Positions 6,702 through 62,573 of a DNA stretch of 64,000 bases are shown here, one piece after another. Position 1 is the stretch's first letter. Each line of letters starts with the position of its first letter. The stretch is from Eledone cirrhosa (taxonomy: Eukaryota), in the NCBI GenBank assembly GCA_964016885.1, contig OZ024745.1, positions 51,770,001-51,834,000 on the forward strand, read 5' to 3'. The notes under the pieces are model-generated. The model was not told the DNA's origin. It saw only the letters and a list, made by a program, of their open reading frames with translations, and did not search any database. The position numbers and the translations under genes were made by a program.

Positions 6702-6711
6702 CATATATATA
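6376..6711. repeat. (TA)/(CA) low-complexity tract, target of the PLE insertion
   Basis: Direct reading of the sequence. Confidence 0.9.
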
Positions 6712-6713
6712 TA

Positions 6714-6825
6714 GGAACCAGTAAGACCCCGACAGCTGAGCTCAAGCCGTTTCGACGGCTAATTCTGGACTAAATGAAAATTTATCCTGGTATTTAAATA
6801 GCCGATCTTCTCAAGGGGTAATTCC
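6714..6825 (-). ncRNA. Type I hammerhead ribozyme, U3-A8 core variant (3' pLTR copy)
   Basis: Sense strand: ggaat t acccc UUGAGAA ga(u)cggcua...uagccguc GAAA cggc u ugagcuca gcug UC / ggggu cuuacugg uucc. Stems I-III all pair. GUC cleavage is predicted between 6731 and 6730. Confidence 0.8.
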
Positions 6826-7926
6826 ATATATGGTCAAAGTGATTGTCAAAAATCAGTAGTAATTCTGTGGTTGCAAATTAGTAGGGGAGATGGTGGCTAA
6901 ACCTGCCAGTAGGAGAAAGAGGGGAGGGGGTGGAGTAGACCCAATCAAGCGTTGGTAGTGCCAGCTACAGCTGGGCATGAGGTCAAAGAAGATACAGGGG
7001 AGGGGGAGGGGGAGGAAGTCGGAACGGTAGGTAGAGCAATGGGGGGTAGAAATAGGAAAGAAAAAATACTGAGAGTGAAGAAAAGCAAATAAGTGTAAAG
7101 AAAAAAGTAAAGTAAATTAAATTCTACGACCTAGGTGTCAGGCTATTGTTAGGCGAGAATAAAATAAATAAAGAAAGAAAGAAGTAAATAAATAAATAAA
7201 TAAATAAATAAGGAAATAAGTAAAAGAACTAGGTGGGACGAAATAGGCAAGGACCCTTTTAAGAGGTATAAGTACGTAAATGATACGGTGACGGGTCAAC
7301 AAAAGGGGCCAAAATACTAAAGAGACTACCACGAAATAAACAATAAAGGTTTCCATCCCGGGCCAGCAACGGCCCAGTGCAGCAAAGTGAACTTGTACGA
7401 GATAATAATTCTGAGTCCCGAGAAAAATATATACTAATGCTAACTCTAAAAGATCTAAAACAAGCTACATGAAAGTTCGTACGAAATAAAGGTAGAATAC
7501 GGAGAAATAAATTCAGAATCCACCCCGCCCAGAAGAAAAGCGAAGCAAGAAATACTGAAACGAAAAAATAAGGCATAAGTGCCACTAAAAAATATAGAGA
7601 GCACAGATAATAGTGGGAGCGGTCGGAAAAAGGGGGCAAGTATCCGGGGTCTAAGCCAACTGCTATAAAGGGCGGAGTCCGCCAAATCTATCAAAGACTA
7701 GGGGAGGGGGGGTGGGGGTACTAAGGCTACATGGGGCCAAAGGGCAGCCTCGGGTGGGCGAGAAAAGACGCCGACAAAGGAGAAGAGCTGGAGTAGAAGG
7801 ACAAAGGAGAGAGGGGGGAAGGAAATAAAGGAAGCGATAAAAGAATACAAAGAAGATCTTACGTCTTCCTTGGCAAGCAGGGGTTACCCATTGCAAAATC
7901 GGCAACTGGGGTGTTATAGCCCTAGT

Positions 7927-10080
7927 CTACCCCCCCGGGTCATTATGGGGTTTGAGGGCGAGGTAAGTCCTACGCAATCTATGTTTACATGCAGTAACCA
8001 GTTCATCTTTCTTGTTTAGGAGTTGGTCCGTCGAAAACAGCATTTGTAAAGTTTCCTCCGAGCATAAATTGCACGGACGGCGTCCTCCCGTGTAAGAATT
8101 GGCTCTGGACAGTAATCTCCAAGTGAGATCATAGGTGATGTTGTTGTCCTTGAGGTCCCATATGTGGCCCGAAAGTGTAGTGGCGTGACGCCGGGCCGGG
8201 TTTCGGAAGGTATGTCTATGTTGGTATAGCCGGGTCTTGAAGTCACATGCGGTAAGTCCTATATAGGCTTTGTTGGAGGTATCCGTCCTCACGTTGCACT
8301 GGTAGATCACATTACGGTCTCTGCATCTATTGTCGAGTGGGCAAATAGATCTATCCGGGCAGTTACACCTCCTGGTCGGTTCTCCACTGCTATTTAGGTT
8401 ATTTCTGCCATCGGGGTTGAGTTTTTTGTTGTTAGAGGAGACGATGTTTTGTGCGAAGTTTGGTGTAGTGCTGTAAGAGAGTTTGATGGTATTTTTGTTA
8501 ATTATGTTGTGGTAGCGGTGTTGTAATGGGAAGTGTTTTTCAATGAGCCTAAAGAATAGTTTCCCGATGGGAGTAGTCACCTCTGCGTTGTGGGGAGGAT
8601 TGAACCATGTTACATTGCGTGAGCGGCGGTGTCTCCTGCTGGTTCCGCTAATGGGAGCTGGACAGTAGGATATTTCCTCCCGGAAACCACTCCGCTTGAG
8701 GGCCTGGTTGTAATAAGGCGCATGTTCATCGAATATCCGCTCATTAGCTGACAAACGGGATATGCGGAGGGAGATGTTTTTGACCAGGTTGTTTGTGATG
8801 TTCCTAGGATGGTTTGATCGGCGGTGGATGTAGTGCAGATTGTCATTAGGTTTCCTGTATGGGTAGTACAGGTCGTTTTCGAGGTCGAGGGTTACGTCCA
8901 GGAAGTTTACTCGGGTCAGGGACGTTTGTAGGGTTATTTTAAATCCCCAGTCGCGGAAGAATCTGATTAATTGTTTCCGGACCCGATCTGTACTACTGGG
9001 GTTGTACCCTTTAAGGGTAAGGAGCCCATCATCACGGTACAATCCACCACCGAATGCAGGAAACATATCAGTGAGTTTGGCTATTAGGAATAATCCTATA
9101 AGATCAGTGACCTCCGCCGAATCCGTGGCGCCCATGCTGACGTCGAAGGGTGAGTCGGGAGCTCTTTTTATCCATTTAGAGTCGTCAAAGAGTAAGACTG
9201 TCTTCCTGGCGTGGAGGATGATTTTTCTTTCCTGGTCGGTGATGGGCACGAGTGTTTCGGCGAAGTCCAAGGCGGCAGTAAGTAGCGGTAAGGTAATTGA
9301 AGCATAGTAGCTCTCTATGTCGAACTGTATGAATTTAGTTTCTCGTTTATCCTCCATATTGCTGAACCAGGAGATTACTTCCTGGGTGTTGATCCATAGG
9401 CTAAGTCGGGTGTGTTGCTTGACTTTTGGTATCACGCGGTCTAGCATTTTTTTGCTGATTCTCCCTATGTCGGACTTCGTTGGGTTAATAAGCCTGATGG
9501 AGGGTTTACGGTCAAAATCGGATTTATGGTCCTTCAGTGTGAAGTATGGTGTCCGTGGGTCTAGAGGTTCCGTGCGGTCGGCGACCCTGAGGCTGGAGGT
9601 GATTTGTTGTCCATCTCGATTTATGTCCTCGATGCAAGAGTGGTTGGCCTTTTTATAGGTGGAGTTTAGGCTGCTCCTGATCAGTGTGTGGTATCTGTCA
9701 GGGTTGACAAAGTATAGGTTCCCAATTTTATCCGAATGCACCATGATGTCATTTGTGTTATCATACTCTGTTAAGTTGCTACGGAGTTTTTGTAGGAATC
9801 GGTTATGTCTGGGTTTAAATTTAATGTTCTTGACCAGTTGGAAGAGGTCATTCTCGAAGGGTGCGAGCAAGGGGTTCAGTGGCGGAGATTTGTAGGTAAT
9901 AAATCCGAATCTCTCCTTGGTTCCGAAGTCTTGGTTGTCGCGATATCTGTCATAGAAAAAAGTTCTCCATCTAAGTCTTTTCGCAAATAGATCAATTTTT
10001 TGCGTGAGCATCCGAAGGTAAAGTTTTTTCGGTGGGATTGGGATGTTCTTGGTAGAGAAGTCAATGTTGTGTTTTCGCAT
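7927..10080 (-). CDS. PLE polyprotein: reverse transcriptase + CxC linker + C-terminal GIY-YIG endonuclease (717 aa)
   Basis: Uninterrupted ORF, open from a TTG at 10227. The likely ATG is at 10080 in context cgcaccATG. RT motifs: FDIESYYASI, MGATDSAEVTDL, GLYRDDGL, VNFLDV, YIHRRSNHP. Further motifs: WFNPP, linker CNCxxxxxCxxxxxC, VIYQ...YIG..FKTRLYQH, CNLCSEE, terminal CKH. Confidence 0.93.
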   Translation of the reverse strand: MRKHNIDFSTKNIPIPPKKLYLRMLTQKIDLFAKRLRWRTFFYDRYRDNQDFGTKERFGFITYKSPPLNPLLAPFENDLFQLVKNIKFKPRHNRFLQKLRSNLTEYDNTNDIMVHSDKIGNLYFVNPDRYHTLIRSSLNSTYKKANHSCIEDINRDGQQITSSLRVADRTEPLDPRTPYFTLKDHKSDFDRKPSIRLINPTKSDIGRISKKMLDRVIPKVKQHTRLSLWINTQEVISWFSNMEDKRETKFIQFDIESYYASITLPLLTAALDFAETLVPITDQERKIILHARKTVLLFDDSKWIKRAPDSPFDVSMGATDSAEVTDLIGLFLIAKLTDMFPAFGGGLYRDDGLLTLKGYNPSSTDRVRKQLIRFFRDWGFKITLQTSLTRVNFLDVTLDLENDLYYPYRKPNDNLHYIHRRSNHPRNITNNLVKNISLRISRLSANERIFDEHAPYYNQALKRSGFREEISYCPAPISGTSRRHRRSRNVTWFNPPHNAEVTTPIGKLFFRLIEKHFPLQHRYHNIINKNTIKLSYSTTPNFAQNIVSSNNKKLNPDGRNNLNSSGEPTRRCNCPDRSICPLDNRCRDRNVIYQCNVRTDTSNKAYIGLTACDFKTRLYQHRHTFRNPARRHATTLSGHIWDLKDNNITYDLTWRLLSRANSYTGGRRPCNLCSEETLQMLFSTDQLLNKKDELVTACKHRLRRTYLALKPHNDPGG

Positions 10081-10253
10081 GGTGCGGGTGAAATGAATTG
10101 AGCTTAGCGGAAAAGTCTGGATACGGCGTGGTAGGGTCGGAAAGTGCTCTACTACGGGAGTAGGAGCTAGATAACGAAGGAAATGTGGTAAGGAACCAGG
10201 TGGACCATAACGCACCAAAGTACTCAATACTTGAGGTAGTAGAGTGGGTAATA

Positions 10254-10365
10254 GGAACCAGTAAGACCCCGACAGCTGAGCTCAAGCCGTTTCGACGGCT
10301 AATTCTGGACTAAATGAAAATTTATCCTGGTATTTAAATAGCCGATCTTCTCAAGGGGTAATTCC
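10254..10365 (-). ncRNA. Type I hammerhead ribozyme, U3-A8 core variant (5' tandem pLTR copy)
   Basis: Identical to the 6714-6825 copy. Predicted cleavage at 10271/10270, 190 nt upstream of the ATG. Confidence 0.8.
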
Positions 10366-11460
10366 ATATATGGTCAAAGTGATTGTCAAAAATCAGTAGT
10401 AATTCTGTGGTTGCAAATTAGTAGGGGAGATGGTGGCTAAACCTGCCAGTAGGAGAAAGAGGGGAGGGGGTGGAGTAGACCCAATCAAGCGTTGGTAGTG
10501 CCAGCTACAGCTGGGCATGAGGTCAAAGAAGATACAGGGGAGGGGGAGGGGGAGGAAGTCGGAACGGTAGGTAGAGCAATGGGGGGTAGAAATAGGAAAG
10601 AAAAAATACTGAGAGTGAAGAAAAGCAAATAAGTGTAAAGAAAAAAGTAAAGTAAATTAAATTCTACGACCTAGGTGTCAGGCTATTGTTAGGCGAGAAT
10701 AAAATAAATAAAGAAAGAAAGAAGTAAATAAATAAATAAATAAATAAATAAGGAAATAAGTAAAAGAACTAGGTGGGACGAAATAGGCAAGGACCCTTTT
10801 AAGAGGTATAAGTACGTAAATGATACGGTGACGGGTCAACAAAAGGGGCCAAAATACTAAAGAGACTACCACGAAATAAACAATAAAGGTTTCCATCCCG
10901 GGCCAGCAACGGCCCAGTGCAGCAAAGTGAACTTGTACGAGATAATAATTCTGAGTCCCGAGAAAAATATATACTAATGCTAACTCTAAAAGATCTAAAA
11001 CAAGCTACATGAAAGTTCGTACGAAATAAAGGTAGAATACGGAGAAATAAATTCAGAATCCACCCCGCCCAGAAGAAAAGCGAAGCAAGAAATACTGAAA
11101 CGAAAAAATAAGGCATAAGTGCCACTAAGAAATATAGAGGGCACAGAGAATAGTGGGAGCGGTCGGAAAAAGGGGGCAAGTATCCGGGGTCTAAGCCAAC
11201 TGCTATAAAGGGCGGAGTCCGCCAAATCTATCAAAGACTAGGGGAGGGGGGGTGGGGGTACTAAGGCTACATGGGGCCAAAGGGCAGCCTCGGGTGGGCG
11301 AGAAAAGACGCCGACAAAGGAGAAGAGCTGGGGTAGAAGGACAAAGGAGAGAGGGGGAAGGAAATAAAGGAAGCGATAAAAGAATACAAAGAAGATCTTA
11401 CGTCTTCCTTGGCAAGCAGGGGTTACCCATTGCAAAATCGGCAACTGGGGTGTTATAGCC

Positions 11461-11884
11461 CTAGTCTACCCCCACCGGGTCATTATGGGGTTTGAGGGCG
11501 AGGTAAGTCCTACGCAATCTATGTTTACATGCAGTAACCAGTTCATCTTTCTTGTTTAGGAGTTGGTCCGTCGAAAACAGCATTTGTAAAGTTTCCTCCG
11601 AGCATAAATTGCACGGACGGCGTCCTCCCGTGTAAGAATTGGCTCTGGACAGTAATCTCCAAGTGAGATCATAGGTGATGTTGTTGTCCTTGAGGTCCCA
11701 TATGTGGCCCGAAAGTGTAGTGGCGTGACGCCGGGCCGGGTTTCGGAAGGTATGTCTATGTTGGTATAGCCGGGTCTTGAAGTCACATGCGGTAAGTCCT
11801 ATATAGGCTTTGTTGGAGGTATCCGTCCTCACGTTGCACTGGTAGATCACATTACGGTCTCTGCATCTATTGTCGAGTGGGCAA
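11461..11884 (-). pseudogene. Duplicated 3' end of the PLE ORF (GIY-YIG part) inside the tandem pLTR
   Basis: Copy of 7921-8344. A 1-nt insertion changes the C-terminus from DPGG* to DPVGVD*. Confidence 0.9.
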
Positions 11885-12335
11885 CGTACTTATGCCTCTT
11901 AAAAGGGTCCTTGCCTATTTCGTCCCACCTAGTTCTTTTACTTATTTCCTTATTTATTTATTTATTTATTTATTTACTTCTTTCTTTCTTTATTTATTTT
12001 ATTCTCGCCTAACAATAGCCTGACACCTAGGTCGTAGAATTTAATTTACTTTACTTTTTTCTTTACACTTATTTGCTTTTCTTCACTCTCAGTATTTTTT
12101 CTTTCCTATTTCTACCCCCCATTGCTCTACCTACCGTTCCGACTTCCTCCCCCTCCCCCTCCCCTGTATCTTCTTTGACCTCATGCCCAGCTGTAGCTGG
12201 CACTACCAACGCTTGATTGGGTCTACTCCACCCCCTCCCCTCTTTCTCCTACTGGCAGGTTTAGCCACCATCTCCCCTACTAATTTGCAACCACAGAATT
12301 ACTACTGATTTTTGACAATCACTTTGACCATATAT

Positions 12336-12447
12336 GGAATTACCCCTTGAGAAGATCGGCTATTTAAATACCAGGATAAATTTTCATTTAGTCCAGAATT
12401 AGCCGTCGAAACGGCTTGAGCTCAGCTGTCGGGGTCTTACTGGTTCC
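12336..12447 (+). ncRNA. Type I hammerhead ribozyme, U3-A8 core variant (inverted pLTR copy)
   Basis: ggaattacccc TTGAGAA gatcggcta...tagccgtc GAAA cggcttgagctcagctg TC ggggtcttactggttcc. Core at 12347-12353, cleavage after 12430. Confidence 0.8.
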
Positions 12448-12549
12448 TATTACCCACTCTACTACCTCAAGTATTGAGTACTTTGGTGCGTTATGGTCCA
12501 CCTGGTTCCTTACCACATTTCCTTCGTTACATATATATATATATATATA

Positions 12550-21066: not shown

Positions 21067-23125
21067 TATATATATATTTATTTATTCAGGTTTGAAGGTT
21101 CACCACTGGATAGAGCTGGTCAATCTTAATGTTATAATATTGAGAGTACTCAACGTAAAGCAGTTCAACCGTCTTCGTTTTCGTAGTTGGTGGTGCTAGT
21201 ACGGAGTTATAATAAAATGACAGGAGACTGGACTTGTGTAAATCCTTGAGAGGTTTATTATACTATGATCATTTCAATGACCGGGTTCCGTATGAATCCG
21301 GTGATATCATCAGGTATTCGAAATACAATAAATGAATGTAATAGGTAAAATCCATGGGTCTGAAAATCAAAGACAGGAGGACGACCGACCATCTAGCATC
21401 TTCCACTTTAGCCGGTCGCCCTCAATTGTTGGCTATTCGGTCTACTTGAGGCCATCTGGTGAGGGAGGGGGGGGGGTGTAAAGCTTTTAGTGTGTTACTA
21501 CCCTCCCGGTCAAATAGGATGGGAGCGGGAGGTAAATCAGCGCCAATATCATGCTACACGAAAAAAGACAGAAAGAAGGGCGAGGAAAAGAAAGAAGAAG
21601 AAAAGTCAGCGTTAATGTCGAGCTACAAGAAGAAGACAGACAGAAAGATGAAGAGAAGTCCGTACTAATGTCAAGCTAGTCAGGCCAGGAGTGGCGCGAA
21701 AAAATGTAATTCTAAAGGACCCCTATCTTAACAGAGGTATATATTATAGCAGAGGTATATATTATAACAGTGGTAAATATAGTGGGGGGTCTGCCTGTTA
21801 TAATGTGTGAGCAGAATATTGAACGTTAATTTTTGTTTAGATCTATAGGATGAAGTTACAAACATTTAATATCTAATATTAACATTACAAAATTAAAGAA
21901 ATTAGAAAATTGAAAGTTAAACAATTTAACATTTTTAACGTTTTGGTTGCGAAGTTTAAGTAAATTAAGAGTCTTTTATGAAGAAACTTAAATTGTATTA
22001 TAGAGTAAAGATTATGTCTTTGTTTAGCAGTCAAACAGCATGTGGCGAATGCAGGGTCTGTCGGCCCAACCTTACCGCGTGTCAGCCCTTCCGAGTGATA
22101 TCGCCTAGCGAAAGATACGGAAATCAATTTTTCCAAGAACTCTAGAAATGTATAACAGGCTTCAGGTGCGCCAGAGGGAAGTCAGCCCTCATCGTTAGGC
22201 CATCCTTGTACCAAACCAGTACTATTAATCTACCCAGGAGGGGGATTTTATTAAGTAGAGGGAGACGTGATACATCTAATAGTTATGATTAGGTCTCCAA
22301 TTTAAAGGTACTATATGGCGGTCAAAAAACCGGCTGCGCGCCGGGCCCCTGGGGCGAATCAGTCCGCTCCTAGTAGTTTCATTTACCGAAAGAAGGGGAA
22401 ATTTACTTTTCCAAGCACTCAAGGTAGGCCTATGCGCCAGGAGGCCGGTCCCGCAGCCAGGAAAACCAACCCTCCAGTCCGACAGAAAATTGGAACTTTA
22501 AATTATGGTTTAGATTTATAGGATGAAGTTAAACATTTTTTTGACCGACATATAGTACCTTTAAATTGGAGACCTAATCATAACTATTAGATGTATCACG
22601 CCTCGTTCTACTTAAACAAATCCCCCTCCTGGGTAGATTAATAGTACTGGTTTGGTACAAGGATGGCCTAACAATGAGGGCTGACTTCCCGCTGGCGCAC
22701 CTGAAGCCTGTTATACATTCCTAGAGTGCTTGGAAAAATTGATTTCCGTATCTTTCGCTAGGCGATATCACTCGGAAGGGCTGACACGCGGTAAGGTTGG
22801 GCCGACGGAGCCTGCAGTCGCCGCATGCTGTTTGACTGTTAAACAAAGACATAATCTTTACTCTATAATACAATTTAAGTTTCTTCATAAAAGACTCTTT
22901 CTTTACTTAAACTTCGCCACCAAAACCTTAAAAATTTTAAACTGTTTAACTTTCAATTTTCTAATTTCTTTAATTTTATAATGTTAATATTAAATATTGA
23001 ATTTTTGTAACTTCATCCGATAGATCTAAACAAAAATTAACGTTCAATCTTCTGCTCACACATTATAACAGGCAGACCCCCACTATATTTACCTCTGTTA
23101 TAATATATACCTCTGTTAAGATACG
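21067..23125 (-). mobile_element. PLE non-coding (pLTR/UTR) insertion with ~590-bp inverted repeat (21724-22317 / 22549-23122)
   Basis: The arms are near-identical reverse complements, giving the mirrored spurious ORFs 21885-22136 and 22730-22981. A minimal hammerhead lies near the left end and TA tracts flank the insertion. Confidence 0.7.
21260..21317 (-). ncRNA. Minimal type I hammerhead (partly decayed)
   Basis: atac CTGATGA tatcaccgg attc atacg gaac ccggtcatt GAAA tgatca TA gtat. Loop III is palindromic and there are two mismatches at the base of stem II. Confidence 0.6.
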
Positions 23126-24711: not shown

Positions 24712-24716
<5 letters not shown>

Positions 24717-24890
24717 AACGAGTAGGACCCCGACGGCTGAGCTCAAGCCGTTTCGACGGCTAATTCCAGAATTAACCGTCGAAACGGCTTCAGCTCAGCC
24801 GTCGTTCCTATTACCGACTCTACTACCCTAAGCATTGAGTACTTTGGTGCGTTATGGTCCACCTGGTTCCTTACCACATTTCCTTCGTTA
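24712..24890. mobile_element. Short fold-back copy of the 6712-12529 PLE termini
   Basis: taggaacgagtaggaccccgacggctgagctcaagccgtttcgacggctaatt, then the inverted arm plus a tail ending ccttcgtta. Inserted in (TA)n. It carries only the 3' half of the ribozyme. Confidence 0.9.
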
Positions 24891-30208: not shown

Positions 30209-31445
30209 CGCGCGCGTGTGTGTGTGTGTCTGTGTGCGTATAAATATGTACATATGTCTGTTCATCGGCAGGTAAGCATGGAAATTCAGGGAAGAAGGAG
30301 AGGGTGAAAGAAAGAGGAGAACTAAGATTTCTGATTCCAATGCATATAAGACTTCCTTTATCCTTTTGTTATAATATCATCCGGTCTGTCACATATGAAC
30401 GAATGCTCAATTATCTAGACAATACAAGCGATATGGAAGGATTTAGTTTGCCCTACCAGTATTTCAGTAGTTTGTGTACACGCAGATTGAAGGTTTAAAA
30501 TGCATTCAATCTAAATATCTAACTTTATTCAGAAAGAGTTGTATAGAATTGCAAATTTGGAACAATAGTCTTGGTTATTGTTGCTTTCTCCGTCGGACAA
30601 ATGCATACATTTCTATGAATGCGCTTATTAACCAGAAACTATATTATTTCTTGGTGCACACTTAGAGATCAAAAGCAGTCTAAATATTGGCATACTTATT
30701 GCTAGTTGGTGTCTATAGAATCATTACTGCAATTTATACGAATTTGTCACTTCACTGAATACATGTTAGTAATATTTAGGTATGAAATTATGTGACAGGC
30801 TATTCGACCAGGTCAGACCAATGTTCAATCACACTGCTATATTGATGATATTCTCTTTATTGGCGAATTTCCTATTCCGATTTCTTTATTCATTGAACCG
30901 TAATACGTTTCAATACAATGAAAACAACTTACGGTTATTTGTCTCGAGATTCTGAAAGCTTTTAATTCTCCAAATACAATGTAATTAGTTAAAACCCCCG
31001 AAATCAATCAATTATCCACAATGCCAGACACACCTAACTACGTAAAAATGTAAATGACAATTATCAATTTACATGCGCGTTTCTATGATCATTTCAATTT
31101 ATCCCTTTAAATAGAAGAAATAACATTCTCATCTATAAATGTACATATACCTAAATACATACAATAATGATTAATGACGCACATCAGAATCAGGCACGGA
31201 TACACAAAATCACACACTCAGAAACAGACACTCACAAGCACAAAGGTAGATAAACCGACACGCTGAGATTGTTGCTGTTGATTGCAAAATAATTAATTTT
31301 GCATAGTGAACGAAGGACTCAATAGCATAGTAGAATACATACAATATGTATTATAGAAATGGATTCTACAGGACTAGAATGTTATACACACACACACTTA
31401 TAAACACACACACACACACACACACGCATACACACATATATATAT

Positions 31446-31624
31446 AACGAAGGAAATGTGGTAAGGAACCAGATGGACCATAACGCACCAAAGTACTCAA
31501 TACTTAGAGTAGTAGAGTGGGTAATAGGAACGAGTAGGACCCCGACGGCTGAGCTCAAGCCGTTTCGACGGCTAATTCTGGGCGTCGAAACGGCTTGAGC
31601 TCAGCCGTCGGGGTCCTACTCGTT

Positions 31625-31629
<5 letters not shown>
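31446..31629. mobile_element. Second short fold-back copy of the PLE termini
   Basis: taacgaaggaaatgtggtaagg...ccgtttcgacggctaattctgg, followed by inverted cgtcgaaacggcttgagctcagccgtcggggtcctactcgttccta. Inserted in (TA)n. Confidence 0.9.
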
Positions 31630-40223: not shown

Positions 40224-40369
40224 TGTGTGTGTGCGTGTATGTTAGTGCATGTGTGTATTAAAATCATATATGATCATCATACTTAAGCTCAAAATTAACA
40301 CGATAGCAAATGTTATTGCCAGAACCAAATAAGGAATGAACTGGCAAAATATATATATCGTTAAATGGA

Positions 40370-40556
40370 TTGGCAGTATCGGTGGAGGGTCGGACGCCAT
40401 GCTTTCCAATATAGTTACGTCCCTTTACGATCTGAGTTCAAATCCCGCCGAGGTTGACTTTGCCTTTCATCCTTACGAGGTCGATAAAATAAAGTACCAG
40501 TAATGCACTGGGTAATTGCTGGCCTTGTGCCTAAAGTAGAAACAATTATTATTATT
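40370..40556 (+). mobile_element. tRNA-derived SINE
   Basis: A-box-like tggcagtatcggtgg, B-box gagttcaaatccc, core gactttgcctttcatcc..ggtcgataaaataaagtaccag (recalled as resembling the Nin/Deu SINE core), and an (ATT)n tail. Multicopy within the window. Confidence 0.85.
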
Positions 40557-41090
40557 ACTTTCAAAGTAAAGGGTGTCATGAATGATACAAAATCAAACAT
40601 ATTTCTTCAGCACACGATAGAATTCAGAGAATAAAATCGAACCTTAATCATTATATGAAAGTGATTGAAATATATTCATACACATTTCAGTGTACACTAA
40701 GAGATATCAAAACATAGAACTAGAGACAAACTACACTTAAAGTAAGACTACATGATTCGTTGAGTATCTTATTAAATCTAATAAAATATTTAAAACAAAA
40801 TACTTGTTAATGATAAATTATATGTCACTCATATGTATCTCCACAAAATCAGAATACATTTCACCGAATAACGGCGATATTTTGAAAGGGATCATCAGTG
40901 AGGGTATTCAAAATCATCTAACCTCATTCAATGCAGGGTTGAAAGTGGCTAAACGCACATGGTATCAACACATGAAATTTAGCACTCGCAACGACATGGA
41001 GGGTTCTTGTTGGCATGAAATAGCAGTCCAGCCTCTCGACATAAACAGCTCAGCACATAAAGAGCAGATATATTATTATTATTACTTTGG

Positions 41091-41275
41091 ATTGGCAGTA
41101 TTGGTAGAGGGTCGGGCGCCATGCTTTGAAGCATAGAGTTACCTCCCTTTATGATCTGAGTTCAAATCCCGCCGAGGTTAACTTTGCCTTTCATCTTTAC
41201 GGGGTCGATAAAATAAAGTACCAGTAATGCACTGTGTAATTGCTCGCCTGGTGCCAACAGTAGAAACGATTATTA
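41091..41275 (+). mobile_element. tRNA-derived SINE, same family
   Basis: Collinear with 40370-40556. Confidence 0.85.
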
Positions 41276-41818
41276 CTTTCAATCGACAAAGTATACATTT
41301 TCTGAAAATTATGAACCGGGGATTATATGAATCTCTATAATTACGTTATCACATTACGATTCTATTAATTTATTTTTTAAATAATTTACAATAAATGACA
41401 TACATTGGATACACATAAATCCGGTGTATCTAAACAAATATTTAAGTGAATGACCGCCAACAAAATGAGAATTGGGATGAATCAATTTAGAGATGTTATG
41501 GTAAATCGAAATAGAGTGGGCAATGTTTATGCAATATTTCAGTTTTCTGCAAATTATCTAATATTTATATTTTTTGGAGAGAAAAAGTTAGACCGCTGAT
41601 TTTGTGATTGATAATCATATATTGTGACTGGCTGTCGTAACTAATTCTTTCTGTTTTAAAAGATCGATTGATCTACGTGACAGAAGTATTCAATGGCTTG
41701 CACGGCGTCATTAGAATCTTGATCGATCATTGATTGGTTCGGATAAGTATTCGATCATCGTCCCATTTACACGCGGTTGCACACATACACACTCTTACAC
41801 ACATACACGCACGCATAT

Positions 41819-42008: not shown

Positions 42009-42316
42009 TCGTGAGTGTGTGTGCGCGTGAGTGTGTGTGTGACAGTGTGTGTGTGAGTGTGTGTGCGTGTGTGTAATTGTGTGGGACGTTGCGTGTGATT
42101 ATGTGTATGTCTTCCTATGCGAAATGAAACCGGACATTGCTCGGATGCTGAGAATGTCCGTTACTCATTAAGTTAAAGAGATTCTGGACAATAATTGTTT
42201 ATTTTTGAAGACACTCATTCAGCGTGGATATACATCTGTGAACAAATCGGTTAAAGTAAGAAGCATTAGGAAAACATGAACTTTGAAATATGCTCCTCCT
42301 AATGCAAATAACCGTA

Positions 42317-42497
42317 ATAACTGTTTCTACTTTAGGCACAAGGCCAGCAATTACCCAGTGCATTACTGGTACTTTATTTTATCGACACCGTAAGGATGAA
42401 AGGCAAAGTCAAACTCGGCGGGATTTGAACTCAGATCGTAAAGGGACGTAACTATGCTGGAAAGCATGGCGTCCGACCCTCCACCGATACTGCCAAT
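42317..42497 (-). mobile_element. tRNA-derived SINE, same family
   Basis: Reverse complement of the same consensus. Confidence 0.85.
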
Positions 42498-45400
42498 CTA
42501 CCACCCTTCCGTAATAATAGCCGATCATTATAAACAAAAGTTGAGAAATCTGGTGAAAAACTCCTTGAGGCAGACAGAATTGAATGGAACAAATGGCGAA
42601 TATTTAAATTGCACATCTCTCAAATGTGGCTTTTACACGACTAGAAATGTTTAATTTGAAAGAAATCATCAGGGATTTCCTGATGAATTCTTTCGAATGA
42701 TTACTTTCGCATCTACTAATAATGATTACTTTCACATCTATTAATACATTAAAAACTCATAAAAATCCTGAAAATATCCTTACCTTCACATATTTACCGA
42801 CAGAAACACAATAATAAACAAGCAAACATACACACACTCATATATACGACCACCCTCTACATTTGCCACAAGCAAAACATATAAGCTCTCCTGAAGCCTC
42901 TTGTCATTCATGTATTTTGTATTACCATCTAATCCCATGTGTAGTTTAACATCATACTTAAAACATTTTGTATTCAATGGATTGGAATAAACAATCAATT
43001 AATCTTTCTATGAGATTAAAATAATTTATTTATAGAATCACTCTCACTACGTCTTTGGACAGAATATAAATAATTTTTATCGGGAAGGTCTCCTATACAT
43101 TACATATGGATCATTTCCATATCTTATCTAAATCCCACCTGATTCGTACTTTGGAAAAAAACTTACTGCCATTCAAGAATCTAATTCCTGAATTATAATA
43201 TACAGCTCGATATCTATTCTATATAATCACACTTCTGAATGGATCAATCTATGCGAATTAATCTTCGATACCAAATGTTCTATGTCAAATACCTAACTAG
43301 TGAATATATCCATTAAATCAGAACTCACAAGCTTACAGAGTAACTAAGTAGTTCTAGACAGCGGTGTTGGTTTTGTAGATTTTTATAACCTGAATAACCC
43401 TCAAACATATAAAGTTAAAAAAAAAATAATAATTGCCCATAAATTATTTAAGAAATACACCTCGAAATTTACTATTTGCAGTGATCTCAATATCGTACAA
43501 CTCTAGCGATTCGATGTGAGATGAGAACATACAGTTTGTAGAATAATATATAAAAAGAAAATAACTAAATAACATGACAAACTTTCACAGTGTTGTTTTC
43601 TCACTTTGATTCTAGCTATCATATTTAAATACAGTAAAATATATGGAGAAGAGGAATACATTTTTCACTCCAAACTCGCGGCACCAAAGACATGAAGATC
43701 GTTAAATAGAAGGCTAAAAATATTCTGTTTGTTGTCATAAAAGGATTAAGGAATTCATAAAATGTGACAAACTAGCCACATTGTCACGTATCATTACTCG
43801 ACATACAGTTCTTTATACTTCAATATAGTAACACAATGGTGTCAAATTGCAGTAACATGAACACTGCGCTGCACAATAATCAGGCAACAATATGACCATG
43901 ATTTCGCCATAAAAATAAAATAGGTTACAGACGTCTAATAGGAAATATTATTGTTTCATAATATAGTATCATCTTTAAATTAATTAATGAACGCAACATT
44001 CTGAAATTATATATTGAGTGCAGACATTAGAAAATGTATTCACCTATCATTGTATAGAATATGGTTGATTAGAATTTAATTGAGTGTAGCTCTCTCGCAA
44101 TAAATAAAGTTATATTATATATTTGTCAACAGCTGCATAGGATGTAGATCCAATATTTTAAAGAGAATACTGATAGTTACTTGCAGCTGTTAGGTGTATC
44201 AAATAGATGGAGTACTAACTCATTTTCTTTTATTTGAGATTGGCTTTCTTCAGAATTGAAAGTAATGTTTGTACTATAACGATCAAGAGAAATAAAAAAC
44301 AACACTTGTACTCAGAACTCGGGTTTCACTTTCATCATTATATAAACAAATCAACGTCGTTTTAATCAAAAGAACCTTTAGAAGTTACTTCACACAATGT
44401 GAGCAAAATTTTACCTTTGATTTATTTATTTTGTCTGAAGTCTGAAATGTACTCAGATAGGCTTCATTTGATAACAGTAAGTTAATTATCGTGTGTTATT
44501 TCGTTAACAGGGTAATGTTTTGACTAAGGTGATAATCATATTAGGTACAATTACAGTGAGAAAAGTCTTATGTAGAAATATCTATTGTTTTATAATTGAA
44601 TTCCACTAAATATATGAAAAATTAGATCTTCTGGAAATATACACTAATCAAATTCATTTAGAAATAGAATAATTTATTATCGTTATCGGGGAAAATGACA
44701 TGCCATTTTTGAAACTAAAAATGAAAGTACTTTCTTTAAAGCATATTTAAATGTTTATATATATATTCGGTAATGGAAAAGTTTGGAAAACAAATTGTGT
44801 TTTATATTCTACGACCATTTATATTCACCGCTAAAAATTAACATATTTATTCCAGATATTTTCTTTCCGTATTTCATATCTCACCATACATTCCTGTTGA
44901 CAACTTATTCAGATAAAGATATATTGTGAAAATAATCGTACCATGTGACACAGCTGTTCAAAATATTTAAATTAAATTAATGTAGGAAGAGCGAACGTTT
45001 GGCAAAACAAATAATATTGTAGTGGGAATTTTGGCATGCTTTAACTTTTACTTTTCCAATTTCGCCTGTCAATAAATGAATTACCATTTACAGCTTGATG
45101 GAAATGCATTAGACTACCAAAATATATCTTATGTTCATAACAATTCCTGTTTTCAGCTACAGTTTGTAATTTGCTAAGGACTCGATTAGCTTTAATAAAT
45201 CAGAGCTATTAAAATATTCATTACACGGGGATCGATCCAATATTTTGTCCTATGTGCCGGCAATGTAGTTCCACAAAAATACAATATTATTATCAGAGGA
45301 GCATGTAGAGAAGCTGTACCATGTTGAAACACCCAGTAATGAATACATATTTGGAGTACTTGATTTGTATTTAAAATTAATTTATGTAAGATGCAAGCAG

Positions 45401-46468: not shown

Positions 46469-47930
46469 ATGGAAACACAAACGGCACAAAAAATATTGAA
46501 CAATAAAAAAACACAACTTAACAAATGAACTCCACAACCATGAATCAAGCAATTGAGAACAACAAAAACAACAAACACAACAACGACAACAATGAAAACA
46601 ACAACAACAGCAACCATAAAACATCTTTGGCGACAGTAAGTAAAGGAACATTTACAAATATTGATATTTCTAATGCGAAGGAAATGATCAATGAAGGAAA
46701 AAAATATATTACCTTCGAAGAAAAAGGGGTATTTAACATCACCTCTCCACCACAAATGAAAGCCTATGCGAAGGACTGTGAGTTTTCGCACGATTTTGAA
46801 CAAACAAAACACAAACCGGCTTTCCTTACTCAAGGCGAAATTGACATCGTCTTTAAAGAGGCAATGCCGGAAATACAATACATACAAAGGGCTAAACTAT
46901 ATGGAAGCATATCGGTGCTCTTCAAAAGTGAGGCCATTGCGAAAAAATACTCAGTGACCCCGGTCACATACATGGGAAAATTAACACAAAGAATAAACAT
47001 CACCTGTATACCACCCAACATTAACATCTGGTGGATTCTGGCAGGGTTCTTGGAGGACGATGAAGACACAATAATGTCGATTCAAAAATCCACAAGAAAC
47101 ACCTGGAACGGCTTGGAAATTTTGGTCCAAATGAAACCGGACAGAATTTCCAAGATACCAGAAAAGGTGTCAGTAGACAATACAAACTATATACAGATTT
47201 CGGCAGCACCTCACATTTAAAGGCCTCCTGTCTCCTCTTACGACCCCCCCCCCCAAAAAAAAAAATTACTTCTACCAACACCAACTCCAAAATCACACCA
47301 ACAACAACAACACACAAAACAAGCAAACACACAAAAACAAACAACTGTTCAACCACAAACAACAGAAAAAACACAAACAATTCCCCTGAAAAGCACAGTC
47401 CCACCCCATCCAACACTACCACAATCACACACACAAACACACCATCACCTCACAACATACCCATCCCACACGCTCCTGATGACGATTCATCACCCGACGA
47501 GGCCACTTCTCCAACCACAAGTGAAGATTAAGTAGAGCTTCATAAATAAAAACAAAACAAAAAAAGAGACACCACTAAGCCACAAAAACAACAACACAAA
47601 CACCACCACGATTAACCCCCCCCCCCCCCATTACCAACAAAACAAACACCAACACCACCCCAAACACAAATGCCCACCATAGAAAGAAAACTACAAAATG
47701 AACAACAAACCAAAACAACACAACAAAAAAACAAACAACAATACACATACATTAACAGAAACAACAAAAACCTAATGGAGGTCATCTCCCAAGTCTCCAA
47801 AGTAGAAACTGAGGGGAAAACTTTTGTAAAAGCAGACTCTCAACCACACCCAAAACTAATAAGGGTTTCGATAGAAACATATCAGAAATTGAAAGAACAG
47901 TTTTCACAGGACGTAGGCAGCCCCTGCTAA
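46469..47930 (+). pseudogene. LINE ORF1 (disrupted; N/T/P-rich low-complexity segments)
   Basis: ORF 46525-47220 and 47670-47930 pieces lie immediately upstream of ORF2. Confidence 0.65.
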
Positions 47931-56662: not shown

Positions 56663-57620
56663 ATGATTGTGTAGTAGTAAGCTGCCAGTATTAGAATAAT
56701 GATCATTCTATGATTTTCTGAATATATGGCACTCTGTTTCTCTTATGAATGTATACCAGAAGTCAAAAGAATTGTCTTGCTTTTTTTATAATATTGATGA
56801 TTTCTTTTACGTAGTCTAACATTCTTCCTTGTTTTAAATTGAAAAGAACATATTATGAAATCAATTCACATGTCGCTATTTAATGTTCCAATAAAATGCT
56901 ATCTTAAAATATTAACACTAATACGTTTAAATCAAATATTTACTAATAATTTATTTTAAACAATCAATGGATGTTCTTCTGAATGAAATTAATTATTATT
57001 CTAAACAGCTATATAGCACCGTCCTCATTTCAATTTTGCGATAATATATTGAAATATTTAAGCTAAGAAAATCAATTTCTTATTTTGTTTTGATTTGTTT
57101 GCTTTCCGCGTTAAGCAGGATTATATAAACAGGATACCGAACACATAATCGTATTTAAGAGGACATATGCGTATTAAATTACGATTGTGTATGATTGTGT
57201 AGTAGTAAGCTGCCAGTATTAGAATAATTGTTTCTACTTTAGGCACAAGGCCAGCAATTACCCAGTGCATTACTGGTACTTTATTTTTATCGACCCCGTA
57301 AGGATGAAAGGCAAAGTCAACCTCGGCGGGATTTGAACTCAAATCGTAAAGGGATGTAACTATGCTGGAAAGCATGGTGTCTGACCCTCTACCGAATTAG
57401 AATAATGATCATTCGATGATTTTCTGAATATATGGCACTCTGTTTCTCTTATGAATGTATACCAGAAGTCAAAATAATTGTCTTGCTTTTTTTATAATAT
57501 TGATGATTTCTTTTACGTAGTCTAACATTCTTCCTTGTTTTAAATTTAAAAGAACATATGAAATCAATTCACATGTCGCTATTTAATGTTCCAATAAAAT
57601 GCTATCTTAAAATATTAACA
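56663..57620. repeat. Local ~255-bp direct duplication (56663-56918 / 57191-57620); second copy interrupted by a SINE
   Basis: Near-identical sequence on both sides of the SINE. Confidence 0.85.
57229..57395 (-). mobile_element. tRNA-derived SINE with 11-bp TSD
   Basis: TSD attagaataat at 57218-57228 and 57396-57406. Confidence 0.9.
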
Positions 57621-60636: not shown

Positions 60637-60821
60637 AATAACTGTTTCTACTTTTGGCACAAGGCCAGCCATTAGCCCAGTGTAGTGCTGGTACTTTATT
60701 TAATCGACCACGTAAGGATGAAAGGCGAAGTTAACCTCGGCGGGATTTGAACTCAGAATGGCAACGGCCGTAACTCAATGCGTCAAAGCATGGCGTCCGA
60801 CTCTCTACCAATACTGCCAAT
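60637..60821 (-). mobile_element. tRNA-derived SINE (diverged variant)
   Basis: Same core and B-box as the other copies. Confidence 0.8.
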
Positions 60822-62081
60822 TCACCGTCATAATAACAATGTTAAATAATATATACACAAAGCCACACAAAACAATCTACTTTGTCGATATTTCTCAAAG
60901 ATTATCCACCAGAACGCATGACGGAGCAATGAATACAGCAAACAATATGCATACCTAACTAGACAACGATTTTGAGGCTCCATTTGCAACATACAAGAAA
61001 TAGATAATATTGAATTATAAAATTGAAACACCTTAAATGACAAATGGAATCACAAACATAAACCTAAATCATATTGAAAACTCAATCACTGCACTCTGCA
61101 TTCACCAACTTTTGTAAATACTCGTACCTACCCTCATGAGTTCCCTAAAACATGGAGCTGGAATGTGTATAGGGTTTTTAAAGGAACTATAATATCTCTC
61201 ATGAATTCGCAACATGAAGTACTTTCAACCTTCTTCATAATGGCTCATATATAATTTAATGGATAGTATTTTACATCACATTCACTGATGCAAACAAATA
61301 CACCAAAATATTTACTTAAAATATCAGATGGCGCCAATTAAAATTTAAATTCAACGTGCATCAGTCTAACCTTTATACGTTTTGGCACATTATTCGGCGT
61401 CATTCAACGTTATCCACATACATTCAAATATCCAAAAGCCACCTGAAACAAACACTGCAAAACTCCTAATAAAAGTGCCGATTAAACAACCAATGCTATT
61501 TCAGTGTCATTCTTCTAACTCTGCATTTGTTTCAAAATGCATGCCATAAGGATCTGACATCTAACACGTTCTTTTTATGTCAACCCAAGAAAATTCGTAT
61601 TCTGTTGAATAATTATTTCAACGCTGTTTAAATCCTCCAACAATGTATATCAACGCCAATAAATGTTAAAGGTTGTCCCTACCAAATTCAATGTTCCAAC
61701 AATAGAAAACATCTGGTGCAACGAAACATCACATCGAAAAAATCTATCTTAGTATTCAAGCACAAACCAACAATGCCATATATGATAGGCATGCAGAAAA
61801 AAGTGAATCGCCTACGAAGATTTCTCCAAAAACCTAAACCTACAAAAACGTTCAGTCTTACGCACTCTCTCTCTCTCTCTCTCTTTCTTTCTCTCTCACT
61901 CTCACTTTCTCTCTTTCCCCCTCCATCCCACTCATTCACAACAAACACAAAAATAAATTATATATATCTGAAATATTAACAACGTACCTGGCGCCAAATT
62001 ACCTGCAAACGATGACAGCGTTCAAGCTTTGTCTTCCCGCATATCTTCCCCCGCTGATGTAACACTCAGAAAATACTAACA

Positions 62082-62573
62082 AATAATTTTCTACTTTTAG
62101 CACAAGGCCAGCAATTATCCCAGTGCATTACTTGTACTTTATTTTATCGACCCCGTAAGGATGAAAGGCAAATTAACCTCGGCGGGATTTCACCTCAGAT
62201 CATAAAGGGATGTAACTCTATGCTGGAAAGCATGGCGTCCGACTCTTTATAGATACTGCCAATAAATAATTGTTTCTACTTTTGGCACAAGGCCAGCAAT
62301 TATCCAATGCATTACTGGTACCTTATTCTATCGACCCCGGAAGGATGAAAGGCAAAGTTAACCTCGGCGGGATTCTTATATAGGCTCAAGGCCAGCAATT
62401 ATGGGGGAGGGAAAGTCGATTAAATCGACCCCAGTACGTGACTGGTACTTTATTTTATCGACCCCGTAAGGTTGAAAGACAAATTAACCTCGGCGGGATT
62501 TGAACTCAGATCATAAAGGGACGTAACTCTCTGCTGGAAAGCATGGCATCCAAACCTTTATCGATACTGCCAA
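62082..62573 (-). mobile_element. Cluster of three tandem/nested SINE copies (62082-62262, 62267-62374, ~62380-62573)
   Basis: Repeated ttctactttt.gcacaaggccagcaatt...tcgacccc.taagg.tgaaag...cctcggcgggatt. The third copy has a different 3' part (gggggagggaaagtcgattaaatcgaccccag). Confidence 0.85.

Follow-up and report, generated by a model that had tools for sequence, protein, structure and literature searches.

The Hydra-type Penelope-like element inserted in the window, as we call the whole 64,000-nt stretch of Eledone cirrhosa DNA that was analyzed, carries at each repeat end a type I hammerhead with a U3-A8 core. Judging from where its genomic copies begin, this ribozyme probably cuts its own RNA after the GUC that ends at 12430, in a small share of the RNAs that are copied into DNA; we give this reading a probability of about two in three. 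About 200 tiny insertions that start at the predicted cut site suggest cutting in the germ line, though rarely. The reading that best fits the genomic data is that of a slow, dimer-capable ribozyme lying beside two reverse-transcription start sites. What is new is the cut footprint and the natural series of states at positions 3 and 8; the U3-A8 core itself is ordinary, and the pseudoknot proposed for the motif is doubtful.

The motif had been noticed in an earlier, sequence-only reading of this DNA, which claimed three identical copies. These do match over all 112 nt (Table 1); since they belong to one recent insertion, they are not independent evidence of conservation. The parts listed for the motif are also present, namely the UUGAGAA core, GAAA (12408-12411), GUC (12428-12430), the ACCCC/GGGGU stem I, stems II and III, and the stem III palindrome UGAGCUCA. 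Both the predicted fold and a relaxed hammerhead descriptor placed three helices round the core with the open end in stem I, as in type I hammerheads. The descriptor matched exactly three sites in the 64-kb window, which are the three copies, and none in 100 local shuffles. As had been foreseen, a CUGANGA search overlooks the motif, and so does Rfam: its hammerhead model gave no match at E 5 in 12 kb or at E 10 in 201 nt, and the matches that Rfam did return were only microsatellite look-alikes and were discarded. At about 21255-21320 on the minus strand, inspection by eye showed what is probably a canonical minimal hammerhead belonging to another family, with CUGAUGA, a 7-8 bp stem II, GAAA, a palindromic AUGAUCAU helix III and a 4-bp stem I.

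The three-way hammerhead was the minimum-energy fold, at −27.5 kcal/mol and about 0.49 of the ensemble, and the overall stability of the motif was not unusual (z −0.17). A rival fold, in which an AGCCGU-CGAA-ACGGCU hairpin buries the GAAA, was just 0.4 kcal/mol worse and took about 0.24 of the ensemble. This hairpin can form because stems II and III share sequence at 12401-12416; it is retained in all subfamily majorities and, on the folding model, might serve as an off switch. Every subfamily retains the palindrome in the loop of stem III, and this loop favours a dimer (calculated −26.3 versus 2 × −4.9 kcal/mol), while a stem III of 5-6 bp makes activity as a monomer possible. The A-U pair of stem II is present only in the youngest subfamily.

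Table 1. Positions in the window of the hammerhead copies, their parts, the host element and related stubs.
Feature	Positions	Strand	Remarks
Type I hammerhead motif, inverted-arm copy	12336..12447	+	Sequence, copy alignment, fold
Identical hammerhead copy, upstream pseudo-LTR; predicted cut 190 nt before ATG	10254..10365	-	
Identical hammerhead copy, element 3' end; element stops at 6711 in (TA)n	6714..6825	-	
Core U3 U4 G5 A6 N7 A8 A9 (UUGAGAA)	12347..12353	+	3/8 states vary by subfamily, N7 free
Stem I: proximal part 12342-46/12431-35, extended distally by 12336-39/12444-47	12342..12435	+	
Stem II, long: G10.1-C11.1, CGGCUA/UAGCCG, internal loop, outer hairpin 12374-12394	12354..12407	+	
GAAA, stem III (5-6 bp) with palindromic loop, GUC; predicted cut 12430/12431	12408..12430	+	
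Possible loop-loop pairing of CCA(G), 12371-74, and (C)UGG, 12440-43	12371..12443	+	Complete only in A2 and A
Intact 717-aa ORF, RT and C-terminal GIY-YIG, Hydra-clade motifs	7927..10080	-	
Upstream pseudo-LTR of 1,634 nt; 99.6% identity with 6711-8344	10251..11884	-	
Inverted 5'-truncated arm, 646 nt, ending in (TA)n	11884..12529	+	
79-nt tail separating two element ends that lie 20 and 99 nt past the cut	12451..12529	+	
Short two-armed stub, older subfamily, without 5' half of ribozyme	24712..24890	.	
Second short two-armed stub, same older subfamily	31441..31629	.	

The host element had been called intact, and its ORF is indeed open throughout. A Pfam search of the 717-aa ORF gave no match; by inspection, the protein carries RWR, DKI, CNCPDRSIC, VIYQC..YIG, CNLC and CKH, and the junctions are (TA)n. 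Among the hallmarks of the Hydra clade, we found the RWK-type and DKT-type motifs, CxCx5C, a C-terminal GIY-YIG with no CCHH, and insertion in (TA)n, but not a canonical CUGANGA hammerhead or a length under 3 kb. Of 8,000 candidates scored, 2,136 were relatives of the protein, most with an identity of about 40%. A 231-aa ORF elsewhere in the window (46525-47220, plus strand), also with no Pfam match, may be a remnant of the first ORF of another retroelement. The Penelope locus is a single young insertion with (TA)n at both ends; the cut-to-cut distance is 3,540 nt, and the insertion exceeds one unit in length. At another locus (G000:C1:91473243-91493732), at least five full units lie in tandem with a spacing of about 3,543 nt, a likely source of multi-ribozyme transcripts. 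Contigs from public runs showed the same two element ends, with loose ends at 10251 and 10171, and the contigs of four DNA-type runs had the same variants and ends; the cut site was absent from the loose ends listed for those four runs, which, being DNA, cannot show RNA ends. By analogy with the element described in the cited part of PMC11167929, we infer that the two element ends correspond to two internal reverse-transcription start sites.

A DNA search of the genome with the 126-nt motif returned nothing despite the abundance of the family, and copies were found by exact patterns. Exact core patterns gave 2,237 matches to the youngest form, 4,573 to others, 1,511 to a C3·A8 core and 98 to cores without A8; a 22-nt motif had no match in metagenomes. 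The sample of 172 fetched copies was chosen so as to over-represent rare cores; 162 of them were sufficiently complete for sorting and fell into ten subfamilies, with within-class divergence ranging from 14.5% down to 1.2%. ORF identity to the window element rose from about 80% to 100% in the same subfamily order. The core is UUGAAGA in subfamily O (G8 in 28 of 35 copies), U-A in P and Q, C·A in C1-C3, and again U-A in B2, T, A2 and A, giving a lineage order at positions 3 and 8 of U·G, U-A, C·A and U-A. In a tree of 70 copies from which columns 3 and 8 were excluded, the young U-A group (98/84) was nested in a C·A grade. A protein tree gave the same unrooted order, with the distant outgroups attached at the young end; as this runs against the age order indicated by branch lengths and by divergence inside the classes, the rooting is uncertain. 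On these trees any root would still put the C·A elements, whose copies carry near full-length ORF remnants, on the main line.

Tens of thousands of two-armed stubs of 130-200 bp end inside stems II-III and resemble small inverted-repeat elements; 27 of 30 copies with the C3/B2 signature are stubs of this kind. Other repeats of the window include an inverted repeat at 21785-23081, with 545-nt arms that are 95% complementary and a 207-nt spacer. A further repeat of 180-200 nt occurs in dispersed copies (42316-42498, 40368-40563, 41072-41276, 57223-57395, 60638-60840 and 62081-62374); it is presumably a SINE, with a stretch on one strand that resembles a B box.

We then considered what the copies say about the core and the stems. 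U4 G5 A6, A9, G12 A13 A14, A15.1-U16.1, H17 and G10.1-C11.1 were invariant in all ten subfamily majorities. Subfamily-level changes affected 3 of 44 core and inner-stem positions versus 26 of 68 others (p 1.4e-4), the two sets of positions being of our own definition. The stems showed no covariation, with none of 28 pairs changed on both sides in 23 sequences; they therefore rest on invariance, as do the proximal and distal pairs of stem I, and because they are invariant the covariation null says little. RNAalifold preferred the CGAA-hairpin fold, the covariation term being absent. Across subfamilies the 3' UTR falls to about 70% identity or becomes unalignable. The 79-nt tail is as conserved as the ribozyme, so the conservation may reflect protein recognition.

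A compensatory 3-8 pair found no support in the comparison, as no Watson-Crick covariation was seen at these positions inside the family: the window copy is U-A, the 1,511 copies are C·A, and 28 of 35 in the oldest branch are U·G. Most likely, to judge from the copies, U3-A8 arose here by C3 → U3 on a fixed A8 and not by a paired swap from C3-G8. Nine chance C3-G8 copies were found, none of which founded a subfamily, and no sister subfamily with a canonical core was recovered by either of two patterns: one gave 40 matches (the old U·G branch and single mutants) and the other 15, all of them unrelated junctions. A path from C-G through U·G to U-A is not shown by the trees, given that the U·G branch may be derived, with two U-A copies basal to it. 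Repair of C·A by A-to-I editing likewise found no support, the C3 copies without A8 having 9 G, 7 U and 4 C, as counted by eye. For the C3 lineage, a shifted register CUGA-GA-A is possible, with G7 in 95 of the 100 matches listed; one origin in a G7 lineage suffices to explain this prevalence. The activity to be expected of C·A and U·G cores is a matter of general background, together with the C3G and G8C single mutants of the Anolis element. The U3-A8 core is not new: such cores are already described in Penelope hammerheads (PMC4209133, in the part cited) and elsewhere in nature (PMC3088659, likewise).

The 5-bp accag/cuggu pseudoknot was also weakened, because G12374 is already in use as the first G of the stem II gga/ucc pairing and U12444 as the first U of the stem I ggaa/uucc pairing, so that the free part is CCA/UGG only. 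Among the copies of A2 and A, the two youngest subfamilies, 41 of 44 had it in full, as against none of the 118 others. Over 23 sequences its pairs were 59% paired without a double change, and the pairing is thus neither conserved nor covarying. Along the subfamily ladder, 9, 0, 52, 58, 75, 75, 75, 66, 100 and 98% of the CCAG/CUGG cells were paired, a climb that keeps a late gain of the pseudoknot possible; each gain in complementarity also lengthens a plain stem, and ACCA is invariant in the subfamily majorities. Subfamily T, without the full pseudoknot, shows the cut footprint too. The pseudoknot is probably not needed.

To locate the footprint, truncation starts were read by eye among the first 100 matches listed per search, with full-length mutants removed. 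Among the matches listed for A/A2, 42 of 83 starts fell at 12431 (30 independent insertions), against a mean of 4.6 at the nine neighbours; this ninefold spike was the sharpest. Position 12431 also accounted for 32 of 80 starts in T, 25 of 70 in C3/B2 and 11 of 44 in C1, where one tandem locus was collapsed and the spike persists (all among the matches listed). Across the subfamily searches, the means at neighbouring positions were 3.7-5.3 over nine positions. With N7 taking all four bases and copies piling up at 12431, the genomic record supports the register that had been assigned to the motif and its predicted cut after 12430.

Fold-backs with both arms at the cut were then counted genome-wide, giving 160/161 strand matches for the U3-A8 signatures (A/A2/T) and 38/38 for the C·A-rich signatures (C1/C2/C3/B2). 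A control offset at 12428, where the chance of CG overlap is equal, gave a single fold-back in the whole genome. Per intact end, fold-backs amounted to 0.82% for U3-A8 and 0.20% for C·A-rich signatures, where the patterns behind the two denominators differed in length (20 and 26 nt) and the ends were split according to the 100 matches listed. Age and palindrome loss confound this roughly fourfold drop, since the C·A-rich signature has a greater age and includes copies of the U3-A8 subfamily B2. All six fold-backs inspected lay in (TA)n and combined an arm of 20 nt with one of roughly 99 nt. The cut site is spanned by about 39,000 copy ends, some 98% of all ends, indicating that the majority of templates had either stayed uncut or been re-ligated. 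Of the 42 A/A2 cut-site starts among the matches listed, about 21 sit in double-cut junctions, far above the 2% base rate; with about half of the starts in such fold-backs, both arms probably come from one cut RNA or a co-cut pair.

The junctions themselves were of several kinds. Among the 51 fold-backs listed, 29 had no spacer, which CG overlap at 12430-31 could also yield, and 19 had spacers of A and T only, which are typical of template ends. G microhomology could account for about 7 of 42 (A/A2) and 9 of 25 (C3/B2) of the cut-site starts listed. T gave 20 of the 51 from about a quarter of ends. About ten T fold-backs among the matches listed join through a GUC/GAC spacer, 1-3 bases upstream of the cut, and such spacers were rarer in the other subfamilies. 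Among the freely accessible papers listed, none reported a genomic cut footprint.

These observations can be accommodated by a simple scheme. The reverse transcriptase of the element would start at two internal sites after nicking (TA)n. On uncut or re-ligated RNA, copying through the ribozyme would produce full units and the stubs that end in stems II-III; on cut RNA, the enzyme would run off at the new 5' end, G12431, adding 0-2 untemplated bases, and two such arms joined together would make the 120-bp fold-backs. Since cleavage within the downstream repeat would part the unit from its start sites, slow cutting may be tolerated or favoured, and it fits both the competing CGAA hairpin and the passage of the lineage through U·G and C·A. 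Any help to the ribozyme would more likely come from a protein of the element, or from dimerization via the palindrome in the stem III loop, than from the pseudoknot. In a bolder form of this scheme, the fold-backs would be a dated, quantitative germ-line record of hammerhead cleavage, each made when both start sites were used on a single cut RNA, with a frequency that tracks the 3-8 pair along a single master lineage (U·G, U-A, C·A, U-A); we give this form an even chance.

Cutting could instead be efficient and followed by ligation, in which case the template would be a 3,540-nt circle, the spanning copies would be re-sealed and the fold-backs would be linear leftovers. A model of this sort was proposed in the cited part of PMC4209133; two cuts would free the exact 3,540-nt unit, and the insertion is longer than one unit. 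A read-through tandem transcript accounts for the same layout, however, and C·A lineages spread without a good core, so that we consider the circle unlikely, although it overlaps the slow-cutting reading at the chemical step and the two are not exclusive. We think it more unlikely still that the ribozyme is mostly dead and kept as a protein-binding or priming signal, the pile-up at 12431 being a pause of the reverse transcriptase or a CG snap-back at the helix junction. The lineage was long amplified with C3·A8 (1,511 copies, nested in the tree), none of the nine chance C3-G8 copies gave rise to a subfamily, the tail is equally conserved, the spike remains in C·A-rich signatures, and insertion in vitro is independent of cleavage (PMC11167929, in the part cited), all of which would fit a dead ribozyme. 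By contrast, it would less readily explain why the spike falls at exactly the predicted base when the CG-matched control gave one insertion, why 19 of the 51 listed fold-backs have A/T-only spacers, why the same secondary structure with C·A gives a weaker spike, or why all other catalytic bases are invariant across the ten subfamily majorities. Least probable is a fast monomeric ribozyme held by the loop-loop pseudoknot and gained stepwise in the youngest subfamilies: such pseudoknots are common in hammerheads (about 40% in the cited part of PMC3088659), the complementarity rises along the ladder with ACCA invariant, and the spike is sharpest in A/A2, but stems I and II grow with the same gains, two of the five pairs take bases already used in those stems, no compensatory change was seen, T, which lacks the full pairing, is well represented among the fold-backs listed, and about 98% of ends span the site.

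The cited part of PMC8557442 calls the function of Penelope hammerheads unclear, and that of PMC4209133 notes in vivo evidence for their cutting as lacking. For these ribozymes, the genome count points to in vivo cutting at the predicted base. The ten natural subfamilies amount to an allelic series, each member with its own prediction: U·G, U-A and C·A cores, and the pseudoknot either present or absent. If the fold-backs are indeed a germ-line record, they would be direct in vivo evidence of cutting, cutting would be largely dispensable for spread, and fold-back counts would read out ribozyme activity for any Penelope family.

The comparisons that follow draw on parts of the cited papers. Like the minimal hammerheads of metazoan Penelope-like elements (PMC4209133), the ribozyme described here is of type I, lies in both pseudo-LTRs, and has a palindromic loop 3 and a U3-A8 pair; a helix II of 7-8 bp, a helix I of 4-5 bp and a low expected activity are also shared. 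The U3-A8 variant reported there is that of Cercyon in Schistosoma mansoni, with about 1,300 matches and a low expected activity. Unlike in those minimal hammerheads, stem III here is not absent or very short but has 5-6 bp and a palindromic loop of 7-8 nt, stem II is extended by an internal loop and a second hairpin, a CGAA hairpin competes with the fold, and dated C·A and U·G core states accompany a genomic cut footprint. The element resembles Hydra-clade elements (PMC8557442) in its RWK-like and DKT-like motifs, CxCx5C, lack of CCHH, C-terminal GIY-YIG, (TA)n insertion and 3'-end hammerhead, whereas the Hydra hammerheads in File S2 of that paper are all CUGANGA with a stem III of 3-4 bp, and the unit of 3,540 nt contrasts with a usual length under 3 kb. 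Anolis carries the PAc Poseidon element (PMC11167929), in which, as we propose here, a tail is made by two internal start sites located downstream of the hammerhead and most templates are uncut. There, however, the core is canonical, the tail measures 30-40 nt rather than 79 nt, and RNA ends at the cut were not found by its authors; here, DNA copies begin at the cut. Cleavage of that element is protein-assisted, and its insertion in vitro proceeds without cleavage. Perreault et al. in 2011 (PMC3088659) described both U3-A8 covariation in nature and pseudoknots between stems I and II; their pseudoknots had mutational support, and the one proposed here shows no covariation and has three free pairs. 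A parallel for the footprint is the HDV-like ribozyme of R2 (PMC3774820), in which a ribozyme cut is likewise recorded as the 5' junction of DNA copies; both the ribozyme and the class of retroelement differ, and the cut that defines full-length copies in R2 is seen here in rare 120-bp by-products.
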